Shown: piece by piece, positions 19,466 through 25,571 of the stretch
Layout of the letters: each line of letters starts with the position of its first letter
How positions within the stretch are numbered: position 1 is the stretch's first letter
Assembly (NCBI RefSeq): GCF_024700885.2
Contig: NZ_CP117016.1
Source of the DNA: Escherichia coli
GTDB lineage: Bacteria > Pseudomonadota > Gammaproteobacteria > Enterobacterales > Enterobacteriaceae
Length of the DNA: 64,000 nucleotides
Strand: one strand, 5' to 3'
Translations under genes and position numbers: made by a program
The notes under the pieces: model-generated
The model's input: the letters and a program-made list of their open reading frames with translations, nothing else
The model's database searches: none
Told to the model about the DNA's origin: nothing

Positions 19466-19924
19466 ATGAATCCCCTGCGTGTCGATCTGCGCGCTGGCAC
19501 CTTCGCCGCAGATCCACTCTTCCAGACGCTCGCTAAGCGCTTCATCCGTCAGCTTCTCGCGCCCACGTAACGTACACTCCCAGACAATCAATACGCGCCA
19601 GCCGAGTGCCTGCAAGCGACTGATATCGCGGCGATCGCGTTCAACATTTTTACCTATCTTCTCCAGCCAGAACTCGGTTCGAGTCGCAGGCACTTTAAAC
19701 AAATAGCAGTGATGATGGTGCCAGAAGCAGCCGTGGGTAAATATCACGCAGCGATATTCATCAACGACAAAATCCGGGCGTCCGGGCAGACTGGCGTCCT
19801 GAACGCGAAATGCCAGGCCCTGCCCGGTTAACAGACTGGCGAGGCGCTTCTCAATCGCCGTATCACGCGTGGCAATTGCGCGCATATTTTTGCTGCGTGT
19901 GGCCTTATCGTGAACGTCGGCCAT
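19454..19924 (-). CDS. vsr: Very-short-patch repair endonuclease Vsr
   Basis: Track ORF 19454..20086; Vsr-length product (156 aa) from [16 protein letters not shown]; overlaps the dcm 3' end. Confidence 0.9.
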
Positions 19925-21323
19925 GTTGTGCCTCTTGCTGACGCAACGCCATCGCCAGTTTGATTTTTGGCTCAAGCAGTTTTGCCACCGCGGCAAAGAC
20001 CGGCACGACCACCGAGTTACCGAACTGGCGATAGGCCTGAGTGTCCGAAACCGGAATGCGGAATTTCGCTTCTCCCGGCGCTTCAAAACCCATTAAGCGC
20101 GCACATTCCCGAGGCGTTAACCGACGTGGGCGATGTTGCTGATTCAGCGGATCGTCAAAGTCTTTCTCACCCGTTGCCATATCCCAGCCGCGATCGATTA
20201 AAATTTCCGCGCCATCTTTGTAATAACGCGCAGACAACGTACGCGTGACGCTTTGCGGATTGTTCGGATAAACCATTCCATAACCGAAGCCATTACCACG
20301 CGCCTGATGTTTTTTCGCATAACGATAGAGGTACTTCCACAGCACCGGCGTCAGGATATATTTCGCCTCGACCATCGGGTCCAGCAGCTGGGCCAGCGTC
20401 ACTCGCTGCGCAGGGAAACATTCGCTGATATCACGCAGAGTAAAATCGGCTTTAAGATTCAGATCGCGACGAAAACCCACCAGCACGATGCGTTCACGGT
20501 GCTGCGGCAGGAAATGTTTGCCATCGATGATTTTCGGATCGTCCGGCCCGTTATCGTCTGCGTCGGCCACGTCATAGCCCAGTTCGTCCAGCGTCTGCAT
20601 GATGATGCGGAACGTTTTACCCTGGTCGTGGCTTTTCAGGTTTTTGACGTTTTCGAGCACAAAAATCGCCGGTCGACGCGCGTCGATAATACGCACCACA
20701 TCAAAGAACAGCGTGCCCTGGGTATCACAGGCAAAACCGTGCGCCCGCCCGAGCGAGTTCTTTTTCGATACGCCAGCCAGCGAAAATGGCTGACAAGGAA
20801 AACCCGCCAGTAATACATCGTGTTCAGGAATGTGTTGACGAATATGTTCCGCCGCCGCCTCATCACTCACGCCTTCTTTATGGCTGAGGGTGATGTCGCG
20901 GATATCTTCATTAAAATGATGCGTCGCCGGATCGCAATAATGGTTGGCTTTATAAGTGCGTACCGCATGTTTGTTCCATTCGCTGGTAAACACGCACTGT
21001 CCGCCAATCGATTCAAAACCGCGACGGATGCCGCCAATTCCGGCAAATAGATCGATAAAGCGAAACGCATAATGCGGATGATGCGCCGGTGGTTTGGGTA
21101 ACAACGTTTGCAGATGGGCGAACTCTTTCTCACTTAAACGGTGCCATGCCGAGTCATTCGCCAGCGCACGTTTTAAAATTGCCGCGCTCCAGTGATTCTC
21201 ACCCACACCATTAAGCTGCGCCACCAGCGTTTTAACATCATAAATTTGCAGCAGTTTCTCCAGCATTGCCTGTGCGGCATTCCCGGTGCTGTATGAATCG
21301 GTTACTGATATATTTTCCTGCAT
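19905..21323 (-). CDS. dcm: DNA cytosine-5 methyltransferase Dcm
   Basis: 472-aa ORF with C5-methyltransferase motifs FAGIGG, PCQPFS and ENV. Confidence 0.95.
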
Positions 21324-21389: not shown

Positions 21390-22085
21390 TCAGCCCGCGG
21401 GTGAAAACGCATCTATCACCTTGTGATCGACACCTTCATTCTCCCCCGCCAGTTCGGCACTGAGCTTCGCCATAAACTCGACTAAAAATTGCGCGTTGTG
21501 CTGCGCCAGCTGCTTGCCTCTTGCGGTTTGCATGGTTTGCGGTAGCTTCAGCAACTTAGTCTGGAAATGATCCAGCGCGTAGCGTTTATCATCAAACGGG
21601 CGATGCTGTGCGAACGGATCTTCGCCATCAAACAGCGCCACGCCCAATGCCCCTGAAACGGCAAACACGCGCGCCAGGCCAATCGCCCCCAAGGCTTCCA
21701 GCCGATCCGCATCCTGGACGATTTTAGCTTCCGTTGTTAAGGGGGCGATTTGCGCGCTGAAACTGTGAGCGGCAATGGCATGACAAACGGCCTCGATTTT
21801 CTCCGCCGGAAATTGCACGAATTCTTCACGCAGCAGGCGACGCGTCTCTTCTGCCGCCAGGATTGAAGAACGCTGCCGTTGTGGATGATTTTTCGCCAGG
21901 CTCACAATATCGTGAAAATAACAAGCGGTTAAAATCACCAACATATCGACATCGTCATCTGCCGCCAGCTTCTGTGCCGTAGCCCAGACGCGGCGAAAAT
22001 GACACACGTCATGGGCCGCGTCCTGGTGCTGATGATGGTTTTTCAACCAGTTTTCGAACTGTGCCTGCCAGTGTTGTAAGTCCAT
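21390..22085 (-). CDS. yedJ: HD-domain phosphohydrolase YedJ
   Basis: Track ORF 21390..22112; start moved to MDLQHWQAQ (231 aa); HD motif present. Confidence 0.85.
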
Positions 22086-22124
22086 ACGCGCTCCGTTGCC
22101 AAAGAGTCGCAACCTTAGCAGTTT

Positions 22125-22508
22125 TTATTCATAGCGTCTGCTACGTGCGGGACGAGGTCGGGTGTACCAGGCAATGCTGCCTAACAATGCCCCGACCAGA
22201 GCCATAAATAAAAATCCGACCAGTGCCCCTAACCACTTTCCCGCGGTAGAGCCTAAATCGCTTTCAAATCCCGACACCGGGGCATCAGGGATCCGGCTCA
22301 TCACCCAGATGTAACGCGCCATTGCCCAGACGAAATAGCCACACCATGTATAGAAAGCCCACAAAGCCAGTTTGCCACCAGGACTGCGAGAGAGTCTCTC
22401 TTCCATCTTTGTCGAACCGTATTCCATTTTGAGATAACCCGGAAAATTCAGACTTAGTACTATTATGTGATAAAAGTCACATTTTTCCACATTGGATGAG
22501 CCAGTCAA
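22125..22508 (-). CDS. yedR: Inner membrane protein YedR
   Basis: Track ORF of 127 aa with two TM helices; true start probably a few codons downstream. Confidence 0.75.
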   Translation of the reverse strand: MTGSSNVEKCDFYHIIVLSLNFPGYLKMEYGSTKMEERLSRSPGGKLALWAFYTWCGYFVWAMARYIWVMSRIPDAPVSGFESDLGSTAGKWLGALVGFLFMALVGALLGSIAWYTRPRPARSRRYE

Positions 22509-23055
22509 GACTCAATCATTTTTTGAACAAATAGATAACTTTTGCGCAATGGCAGTGAATACAGGAAAAATCGTTTTGAGCGATTTTATTTATCTTTGAT
22601 ATCGGCTTTATTAATTCATTCAATCAATATATTAGCACTGATTACAATTATACCTTTTTATTTTTCTGTGTCATGATGCCTCCGTTATTAGCCTTTTATC
22701 GTCTTGTTTATATTTTTTGGGCCGGCATGATGCCGGCTTTTTTTATGCCTTCATTAATGTGCGCGTGATCACACCAGCCGTTTGGCGCAACAATCATTGA
22801 TACCCCCTATGTTTCCGCTCAACTCATAACATATTGATATACATTTATAATTTTCATGAATATTTATATTTAGAATTCATAATTCTGAATCATATTAAAT
22901 AGATTAGAAACATTTTGAAATCTTTTAAATACATTTGTTACATGTAATCTTTAAAATAAAATGAACTTCATAGAATAGTATCCAAATGTGCTTTTTTTTG
23001 GATAACGGCACTTATTGATATATTCATGAAGATTATAATCACAAGGGAATACATA

Positions 23056-24129
23056 ATGAAAAGAAAAGTTCTGGCAATGCTGGTCCCGGCGTTATTAGTT
23101 GCTGGCGCAGCAAATGCGGCTGAAATTTATAATAAAGATGGCAATAAAGTTGATTTCTACGGCAAGATGGTTGGCGAACGCATCTGGTCAAATACTGATG
23201 ATAATAACAGCGAAAACGAAGATACCTCCTATGCTCGTTTCGGTGTTAAAGGTGAAACCCAAATCACCAGCGAACTGACTGGTTTTGGTCAGTTTGAATA
23301 CAACCTCGACGCCAGCAAGCCCGAAGGCTCTAATCAGGAAAAAACCCGTTTAACCTTCGCAGGTTTGAAATATAACGAGTTAGGATCTTTCGACTATGGT
23401 CGTAACTACGGTGTTGCTTATGATGCCGCAGCTTATACCGATATGTTAGTTGAATGGGGTGGTGATTCCTGGGCTTCCGCTGACAACTTCATGAACGGTC
23501 GTACCAACGGTGTTGCAACCTACCGTAACTCTGATTTCTTTGGTCTGGTTGATGGTCTGAATTTTGCTGTGCAATATCAAGGTAAGAACAGCAATCGTGG
23601 CGTTACTAAACAAAACGGTGATGGCTATGCGTTGTCTGTAGACTACAACATCGAAGGTTTTGGTTTTGTAGGTGCATATAGCAAATCTGATCGTACTAAT
23701 GAACAAGCTGGTGACGGCTACGGTGATAACGCTGAAGTGTGGTCATTAGCAGCCAAGTATGATGCAAATAATATCTATGCAGCAATGATGTACGGTGAAA
23801 CCCGCAACATGACCGTTTTGGCTAATGATCATTTTGCAAATAAAACCCAAAACTTTGAAGCTGTTGTACAGTATCAGTTCGACTTCGGTTTACGTCCGTC
23901 TTTAGGCTACGTATATTCCAAAGGCAAAGATCTTTATGCTCGTGATGGACATAAAGGTGTTGATGCTGACCGCGTAAATTATATCGAAGTTGGTACCTGG
24001 TACTACTTCAATAAGAACATGAACGTCTACACAGCATACAAATTTAACCTGCTGGATAAAGACGATGCAGCGATTACCGATGCCGCAACTGATGACCAGT
24101 TTGCAGTTGGTATCGTCTACCAGTTCTAA
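23056..24129 (+). CDS. yedS: OmpC/OmpF-family general porin (YedS-type), apparently intact
   Basis: Track ORF 23026..24129; start moved to [21 protein letters not shown] (signal peptide); C-terminal aromatic residue F; AT-rich upstream region. Confidence 0.85.
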
Positions 24130-24173
24130 TCAGCCAACGCGCCGCGGCGTGTTACTGTAAAACTTAACAATAG

Positions 24174-24210
24174 CCTGAGTTCGTCCCTCATCGAACTCAG
24201 GCTTTTTTAT
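24174..24210 (+). terminator. Rho-independent terminator after the porin gene
   Basis: CCTGAGTTCG / CGAACTCAGG stem followed by CTTTTTTATT. Confidence 0.75.
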
Positions 24211-24719
24211 TGGCATTTCATCTCCATCTGCGGCACACGCATTTGCCAAAGCATATCGATACAGCACATTACCCCGCCCCTCCTGGCTCAATAAAATCTA
24301 CCAGCGTCTCTTCCAGCCAACACCCAAATGCATTTCTTTATGAATTAATCTGCAACAAAACCGCCCCCCATATAGAAATATTTGCAAAAATAGTGCATGA
24401 AAAAAGCTTTTTCTCTGCCAATCCGGGATATAAATATTCATCAGCACCACGATATTCCACAGCACTAAATCTCTCCCCGCCGCCCCGTACCTCTGATAAT
24501 GGTCTAAAATCATTGAGGCCACTTGCGACGACGTAGCTCAATAAGGAAAATTTGGCGTGAATAATATTCAACACCAGTGCAGCATCATCATTACATACTT
24601 ACACCCACGACTACCGCTTTCGATATATTGACTCAATTTTCCAGCCTGGTTAAAAATAGCGACCAGCTCAGTCGCAAATATAGTGACTACCCTAACTAAG
24701 CAACAATAAGGAATACACT

Positions 24720-25571
24720 ATGACTGTTCAAACAAGTAAAAATCCGCAGGTCGATATTGCTGAAGATAATGCATTCTTCCCTTCAGAATATTCGCTTAGC
24801 CAATATACCAGTCCTGTCTCTGATCTTGATGGCGTGGACTATCCAAAACCGTATCGCGGTAAACATAAAATTCTGGTGATCGCCGCGGACGAACGTTATT
24901 TGCCGACCGATAACGGAAAACTGTTCTCGACCGGTAACCATCCGATTGAAACATTGCTGCCGTTGTATCATCTCCACGCTGCAGGTTTCGAATTCGAAGT
25001 GGCGACCATTTCCGGTCTGATGACCAAGTTTGAATACTGGGCTATGCCGCACAAAGATGAAAAAGTAATGCCATTCTTTGAGCAGCATAAATCTTTGTTC
25101 CGCAATCCGAAGAAACTCGCGGATGTTGTCGCCAGCCTCAACGCTGACAGCGAATATGCAGCAATCTTTGTTCCTGGTGGTCATGGCGCACTTATTGGTT
25201 TACCAGAAAGCCAGGACGTGGCTGCCGCTTTACAGTGGGCAATCAAAAATGACCGTTTTGTTATCTCCCTTTGCCACGGCCCGGCGGCATTTCTGGCGCT
25301 TCGCCACGGCGATAACCCACTGAATGGTTATTCCATTTGCGCATTCCCAGACGCCGCAGACAAACAAACGCCAGAGATAGGCTATATGCCGGGTCATCTC
25401 ACCTGGTACTTCGGCGAAGAGCTGAAGAAAATGGGCATGAACATCATTAATGACGACATCACCGGGCGAGTACATAAGGACCGTAAAGTTCTCACCGGCG
25501 ACAGTCCTTTCGCAGCGAATGCGTTGGGTAAACTGGCGGCGCAGGAAATGCTGGCAGCTTACGCGGGTTAA
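24720..25571 (+). CDS. hchA: Glyoxalase III / protein deglycase HchA (Hsp31)
   Basis: 283-aa DJ-1/PfpI-family ORF. Confidence 0.93.
   Translation: MTVQTSKNPQVDIAEDNAFFPSEYSLSQYTSPVSDLDGVDYPKPYRGKHKILVIAADERYLPTDNGKLFSTGNHPIETLLPLYHLHAAGFEFEVATISGLMTKFEYWAMPHKDEKVMPFFEQHKSLFRNPKKLADVVASLNADSEYAAIFVPGGHGALIGLPESQDVAAALQWAIKNDRFVISLCHGPAAFLALRHGDNPLNGYSICAFPDAADKQTPEIGYMPGHLTWYFGEELKKMGMNIINDDITGRVHKDRKVLTGDSPFAANALGKLAAQEMLAAYAG

Follow-up and report, generated by a model that had tools for sequence, protein, structure and literature searches.

Among the described porins closest to the gene studied here are OmpK35, the ompF-locus porin of Klebsiella, and YedS of Escherichia coli, whose gene is defined by its position between drpB/rseX and hchA, downstream of dcm-yedJ. 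The small RNA RseX binds Hfq and represses ompA and ompC. In K-12, RseX "and surrounding areas" become transcriptionally active only upon deletion of hns, most of all in combination with stpA (PMC8313858), and a high-affinity CRP site was newly reported upstream of yedS, just after rseX (PMC12871828). In a study that labels yedS as ompS1, its mRNA went down 2.5-fold upon sigma-E induction, like those of ompC, ompF, and phoE (PMC2731931). The Salmonella porin gene ompS1 is quiescent: H-NS and StpA silence it, and LeuO lifts the repression (PMC4264507). In some E. coli isolates, yedS is reported to be functional and to bear on carbapenem susceptibility (Warner et al. 2013, AAC 57:1935, per PMC4048246 and PMC11267920), and an active yedS combined with an inactivated marR is reported as a mode of carbapenem resistance (Warner 2013, per PMC4048246). 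A proteomic study of STEC O26 also listed a "putative porin 50% homologous to K-12 YedS," which could not be linked to the allele described here (PMC9731836).

We analyzed the yedS position in a stretch of 64,000 nucleotides of E. coli DNA (contig NZ_CP117016.1 of assembly GCF_024700885.2), hereafter the window. The gene order is dcm-yedJ-drpB-rseX-porin-hchA-hprS, with dcm at 19905-21323 on the minus strand, hchA at 24720-25571, and drpB standing for drpB/yedR. MG1655 has an identical order, with the yedS pseudogene b4496 where the window has the porin. The flanks (drpB/rseX on one side and hchA on the other, downstream of dcm-yedJ) place the window gene at the yedS position, as the initial annotation of this DNA had proposed. 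The locus carries the following features:

22655-22744, plus strand: rseX small RNA gene (Rfam RF01401; MG1655 annotation at the same place)
22745-23055, no strand: AT-rich spacer, presumed promoter region and presumed H-NS target (from composition and by analogy with K-12)
23043-23049, plus strand: Shine-Dalgarno-like AAGGGAA, ending 6 nt before the ATG (read from the sequence)
23056-24129, plus strand: porin coding sequence, 357 codons and stop (ORF list, Pfam, RefSeq match)
23056-23118, plus strand: signal-peptide codons, 21 aa (alignment to the OmpC, OmpF, and PhoE precursors)
about 23125-24114, no strand: hypervariable block, the part coding for the mature protein (locus alignment; breakpoints are estimates)
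23404-23511, plus strand: loop L3, residues 117-152, the predicted constriction "eyelet" (AF2 secondary structure)
24172-24209, plus strand: intrinsic terminator with a 12-bp stem, an 8-nt loop, and a T-run (terminator scan)

The porin gene is complete. The six-frame ORF list contains an open frame at 23026..24129 (plus strand), which from the ATG at 23056 encodes 357 aa with no internal stop. E. coli strain 1190 has DNA 100% identical to that of the window and carries the gene under the annotation "porin"; the window protein exactly matches its product WP_000824361.1, a yedS-locus porin of what we call allele class A. The initial annotation had placed a complete 357-aa gene at 23056-24129, coordinates that are exact; the internal stop or frameshift that it had considered was searched for in the window gene, and none was found. 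An in-frame ATG at 23026 (367 aa) was rejected as the start, as it adds 10 aa ahead of a canonical signal peptide, and RefSeq and all homologs begin at 23056. The predicted cleavage site lies between ANA and AE (after Ala21, before AEIYNK) and aligns with those of OmpC, OmpF, and PhoE, and the protein ends in ...VYQF, with Phe as its last residue. The signal peptide and C-terminal aromatic residue that had been read from the sequence are borne out, as are the AT-rich upstream region (28% GC over 22745-23055, against 43% in the porin gene and 50.6% in the window) and the strong terminator, which has a folding energy of -22.2 kcal/mol (z = -5.9 versus shuffled sequence) and is kept between alleles in the locus alignment.

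Pfam PF00267 (Porin_1) covers residues 27-357 over its full length (profile 1-337 of 337, E = 6e-122), with 407.7 bits against a gathering score of 23.7, in agreement with the OmpC/OmpF family assignment made earlier. The more specific NCBIfam models gave scores below their cut-offs: 449.3 bits against 583 for the OmpF equivalog (NF007446), 431.6 against 484 for the OmpC subfamily (NF007841), and 423.6 against 599 for the PhoE equivalog (NF007544). By these profiles the gene is filed in the general porin family and in none of the OmpF, OmpC, or PhoE named subfamilies, and because all three cut-offs are missed, permeability is not simply transferable from any of these porins. The closest solved structures by sequence are those of OmpK35 (9hn1 and 5o77, E = 7e-151). 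The AF2 model (pLDDT 82, pTM 0.79; weak in part of L3, where residues 140-147 have pLDDT < 50) has a 16-strand pattern; its best fold match is 5o77 (TM 0.88/0.93), and the top PDB matches are OmpK35, Omp35, and OmpF at TM 0.83-0.93. The predicted structure is that of a 16-stranded beta-barrel with an inward-folded L3.

This loop carries a VEWGGD motif at 23449-23466. In OmpF numbering, residues K16, R42, R82, R132, D113, E117, D121, Y102, Y106, G119, and G120 are conserved, with the basic K16/R42/R82/R132 opposite the acidic D113/E117 of L3; the E71/R100 trimer latch and the C-terminal Phe are likewise conserved in the alignment with OmpF. All pore-lining residues being conserved, a functional general porin is the most likely product, and we consider it very probable that the window gene encodes a general-diffusion porin that works.

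The same data bear on whether the protein could be a specialized channel, either a PhoE-like anion/phosphate porin or chiefly a surface receptor or antigen with transport as a secondary role. The NCBIfam PhoE score is close to those of OmpF and OmpC, all three falling below cut-off; the 5o78 chain, PhoE by sequence search and Omp35 by fold search, nearly equals OmpK35 as a match; and the allelic diversity in exposed loops described below is extreme, as is typical of phage-receptor or antigen loci. The constriction residues, however, are those of OmpF and OmpK35, and the lysines of PhoE are missing (K125 is Gly, as in OmpF, K18 is Val, and K29 is Glu), and the net charge of the mature protein is -18, compared with -10 in PhoE. 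The absence of K125 together with this charge argues for a cation-preferring general porin and not a phosphoporin. A PhoE-type channel was rejected on the Gly at position 125, the score below cut-off, and an acidity greater than that of PhoE, and we give a specialized channel of either kind very little credence.

The reading of the gene as encoding a functional general-diffusion porin builds on its intact frame, family, predicted fold, pore residues, synteny, purifying selection, and allele structure, all shown here; from these we infer its channel activity, trimerization, regulation, and antibiotic effect. The precursor would be exported by Sec and its signal peptide cut after Ala21; BAM would then use the C-terminal Phe signal to insert the mature 336-aa chain, which would form the 16-stranded beta-barrel and trimerize. 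L3 would fold into the barrel as the constriction, its acidic residues facing the conserved basic cluster of the wall, and would yield a water-filled channel of the OmpF/OmpK35 kind that prefers cations and admits small hydrophilic solutes, among them beta-lactams and carbapenems.

OmpK35 of K. pneumoniae (5o77, 9hn1) is 66-68% identical to the window porin; both have the VEWGGD eyelet, retain K80, and have short loops and a similar length, and their folds match at TM 0.88-0.93. It differs in that the window gene lies at the dcm-yedJ locus, where it has nearer relatives (75-80% identity). OmpF and OmpC of E. coli share its fold, signal peptide, pore-lining residues, trimer latch, and C-terminal signal, but they are 59-62% identical to it, and the codon bias of the window gene is lower.

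The initial annotation had called the gene an intact "yedS-type" porin, which holds for its position but not for its sequence lineage: the mature proteins of the window gene and K-12 yedS share about 60% identity and belong to separate clades. Both genes share their position and family, their signal-peptide codons are identical, their terminator is conserved, and their upstream spacers differ by five mismatches in 311 bp. However, the window protein has 60-63% identity with class-D proteins (K-12-type, reconstructed or intact), its length is 357 aa against approximately 395-397 aa, its eyelet is VEWGGD where K-12-type proteins have PEFGGD, as in OmpC/OmpF, and these proteins carry long insertions in external loops L4/L5/L7. 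K-12 yedS groups with OmpC and OmpF, whereas the window type groups with OmpK35 and the syntenic porins of other genera. By clade, eyelet, length, and identity, the window protein falls outside the K-12 YedS/OmpS1-like lineage. As judged from these comparisons, the window gene is not K-12 yedS repaired but a member of a separate porin lineage, and therefore an alignment to the K-12 fragments, proposed earlier as a check, cannot be read in terms of repair versus damage.

The K-12 locus is a pseudogene, as the initial annotation had stated: relative to intact relatives such as strain 19A14, it has a CAG-to-TAG (amber) change at codon Q162 and a 1-nt deletion near codon 222. O157:H7 yedS has a different lesion, a separate 1-nt deletion, and the D-type alleles of K-12 and O157 were inactivated independently. 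Both loci (MG1655, L017 4052-5244; O157:H7, L005 1858-3044) are D-type, and in the O157 record drpB is also annotated as frameshifted. The OmpS1 label attaches to the OmpC-like class D and not to the lineage of the window gene; the source of one class-D E. coli protein lists it as "outer membrane protein S1." Among the 18 loci retrieved by a YedJ search of genome contigs, four are from Escherichia and none is from Salmonella.

In a neighbor-joining tree, the window allele (class A) groups with class B (371 aa, 90% identical to the window porin), with the E. fergusonii porin (86%), and with the syntenic porins of Citrobacter and Enterobacter hormaechei (80%) and K. oxytoca (75%); class C, from strain EC28, is a more distant member of this group (69%), and classes D and E group with OmpC and OmpF. 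In Citrobacter, E. hormaechei, and K. oxytoca the order is vsr-dcm-yedJ(-drpB)-porin, and by both flanks and clade the window gene belongs to this dcm-yedJ-linked "VEWGGD" porin of Enterobacteriaceae, which has no name. Because classes D and E cluster with OmpC and OmpF and class A with the syntenic porins, K-12 yedS represents, on this tree, a second lineage in the same slot, and the window allele represents the lineage of the positional ortholog in other genera. On this reading, the window gene is one of several deeply diverged porin "cassettes" that alternate at the yedS position in E. coli, orthologous to the syntenic porin of Enterobacteriaceae and not to the OmpC-like one that decayed in K-12 and O157. 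Beyond E. coli, D-type alleles are present in E. albertii, E. whittamii, and Escherichia sp. E1V33, and an A-type allele in E. fergusonii.

We aligned the locus from yedJ to hchA in seven E. coli strains and compared it in 100-bp windows. The hypervariable block is 32-86% identical to the other E. coli alleles, while the flanks are 95-100% identical. At 23056-23121 (66 nt, the signal-peptide codons) there are no nucleotide differences among the seven alleles, and the upstream spacer has 4-20 mismatches in 311 bp between alleles. Between the clinical strains S65EC and EC28 (L003 vs L004; window 21390-25571), the flanks are 98-100% identical but the porins only 68%, suggesting that the block was replaced within a single genetic background. 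Relative to the window allele, class B shows a synonymous divergence of 0.50 and classes C, D, and E one of 1.2-1.8, the latter comparable to or greater than that between genera. Changes at the amino-acid level, and every indel, cluster in the predicted external loops; between A and B, 31% of loop residues and 5% of barrel residues differ, and none in L3. Since divergence is confined to the mature-protein part and the promoter, signal, and terminator regions are 95-100% identical, this pattern suggests cassette-like allele replacement at the yedS locus.

A broader reading, which we put forward tentatively and think rather unlikely, is that the yedS position is a dedicated slot for porin variation. 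At least two ancient lineages, VEWGGD (classes A, B, and C) and the OmpC-like PEFGGD (D and E), would occupy it, with a between-class synonymous divergence (0.5-1.8) as deep as that between genera. The promoter and signal-peptide codons on one side, and the last codons and terminator on the other, would serve as recombination arms, and frequency-dependent selection by phages, colicins, or antibodies would hold the alleles across Escherichia species. H-NS would normally silence the slot, which could possibly be switched on together with RseX; as RseX represses ompA and ompC, the cell would in this way exchange its major porins for the variable one. This coupling to RseX is speculative. In the searchable literature we found no description of two deep yedS lineages with several classes alternating in a bounded cassette. 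The cassette pattern is a locus-level observation, and a full population analysis is needed before any claim of balancing selection.

The window allele is common. Of 5,426 complete E. coli genomes, about 745 carry its variable part at 95% identity or more; in the same set, A or B alleles occur in about 1,355 genomes and D-type alleles in about 1,660 (at least 80% query cover). At least 1000 contigs encode exactly this 357-aa protein, under names that include "porin" and "outer membrane protein F." Each of the 14 class-A rows sampled gives a gap-free alignment over its full length, and all five inspected class-A records are annotated as intact. An intact gene at the yedS locus is ordinary, being the norm in many lineages and no peculiarity of this strain, and yedS-locus pseudogenes belong to certain lineages, especially K-12 and O157, which make up a disproportionate share of database entries. 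Two decayed class-A genes were seen: in Z217-2 (L008 1856-4112) the gene has a frameshift, and a truncated transposase and an IS30 element lie after it in place of hchA; in WB61 (L009 1857-2736) it is shortened and frameshifted.

Compared with three near-identical class-A alleles, the window gene has 12 synonymous changes and one non-synonymous change, and one class-A allele with seven silent differences encodes an identical protein. In comparison with the 96%-identical PapM-32-1 allele, dN/dS is 0.16; for the orthologs of Citrobacter and Enterobacter it is 0.06. These values (0-0.16 overall) indicate that the window allele is under purifying selection. The fraction of optimal codons (Fop) is 0.66 for the window porin, 0.34-0.57 for neighboring genes, and 0.79-0.91 for ompF and ompC.

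These results also weigh on a less favorable reading, that the gene is cryptic: intact by chance or because of its recent history, without ever being usefully expressed, and about to become a pseudogene like those of K-12 and O157. The K-12 and O157 genes were lost independently through different lesions, Z217-2 and WB61 carry class-A pseudogenes, the upstream region is AT-rich and H-NS-silenced in K-12, and native RseX next door went undetected for years (PMC8313858). Codon adaptation clearly below that of the major porins and the occasional decay of class A likewise count against a functional porin. On the other side, alleles within the class and orthologs in other genera both show strong purifying selection (dN/dS 0-0.16), identical copies of the protein are very widespread, and codon usage is better than in neighboring genes. 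The external loops, moreover, change at several times the rate of the barrel, with L3 and the pore residues held fixed, which is the pattern of an exposed, working porin. We therefore judge a cryptic gene improbable and retain the functional general-diffusion porin as the best explanation.

Concerning expression, transcription of this porin gene would probably start in the shared AT-rich spacer, which contains two candidate elements:

22758-22773, minus strand: CRP-type palindrome TGTGATCACGCGCACA, the only match in the window, with 0.12 expected by chance
22935-22962, plus strand: candidate sigma-70 promoter-like site TTGTTA-16 nt-TAAAAT, 9/12 matches (consensus scan)

In the consensus scan, the number of promoter-like sites in the upstream region was not above the shuffle expectation. 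The CRP-type site lies 14 bp past the end of rseX and approximately 290 bp from the porin start; the homologous K-12 site (2033766), assigned to yedS, has an in vitro Kd of about 4.9 nM (PMC12871828). OmpR boxes were sought in the 311-bp spacer by whole-site comparison with K-12 F1, F2, F3, and C1, whose presence in the K-12 loci was verified, and the matches were no better than those in shuffles. The half-site-like words GAAACAT and GTTACAT occur near 22910-22950.

The rseX gene is well supported (96.7 bits against a gathering score of 50, E = 3.9e-13), has the orientation of the porin, lies 311 bp upstream of it, and has its own terminator at 22719-22739. Pairing of RseX with the porin leader was no better than with shuffled sequence, and the Citrobacter, Enterobacter, and K. 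oxytoca loci that carry the syntenic porin yielded no rseX. MicF reportedly controls YedS. The first 40 nt of MicF, paired with the porin mRNA from -110 to +40 (RNAduplex), gave -12.6 kcal/mol (z = +0.4), a weak duplex that overlies the porin start region and that 66% of shuffles equal; ompF, the positive control, gave -27.4 kcal/mol (z = -5.5).

As the spacer is common to all alleles, regulatory knowledge from K-12 should carry over to the window gene. By analogy, the porin region of the window is probably H-NS-silenced; given the 28% GC and the H-NS/StpA silencing of this neighborhood in K-12, laboratory expression may be low, and the protein may be absent under most conditions. Transcription would probably be low in the laboratory through this silencing and probably relieved under particular conditions. 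The behavior of Salmonella OmpS1 offers the best available model for regulation of the yedS locus, taken strictly as a model.

If expressed, the porin would provide an OmpF/OmpK35-like channel and an extra entry route for beta-lactams and carbapenems, in line with the published idea for YedS; it could possibly act as a back-up upon loss of ompC or ompF, and its down-regulation would then add to resistance. This antibiotic relevance of YedS is already published and is not specific to the window allele. Since a functional yedS has been published and the exact protein is in RefSeq, the intact porin at this locus is a correct observation of something already known and ordinary; the allele polymorphism is the more interesting result. 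A deeply diverged block with sharp borders and nearly identical flanks illustrates cleanly how a surface protein is exchanged in cassette fashion, and it merits a proper population analysis. It also means that the name yedS covers at least two non-orthologous porin lineages, and with the mixed names in RefSeq, allele-blind calls of yedS as "intact" or "absent" in resistance genomics can mislead. PGAP names D- and E-type alleles "ompC: porin OmpC," including the K-12 pseudogene, and A, B, and C alleles "porin," and counts of ompC or yedS in E. coli genomes that are based on gene names are therefore wrong.

The class E allele of strain Ec40743 (L006 1858-3021) is intact, with 387 aa and the eyelet PVFGGD. 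It carries the pore changes R42E, E62L, R82K, and E117V (OmpF numbering), which suggest a channel of quite different electrostatics.

Downstream of the porin, the spacer to hchA (24130-24719) has 590 bp, 44% GC, and short ORFs only; some RefSeq records annotate hypothetical proteins in it, such as one of 78 aa at 24338-24574 on the minus strand, and identity between alleles drops to about 89-93% at 24217-24415. In Citrobacter and K. oxytoca, two tRNA genes directly follow the syntenic porin (L011 6241-8823; L014 and L015 6289-7439), with a phage-type integrase also present downstream in one Citrobacter genome, where E. coli has hchA-hprSR. The downstream side of the locus is therefore an insertion hotspot.
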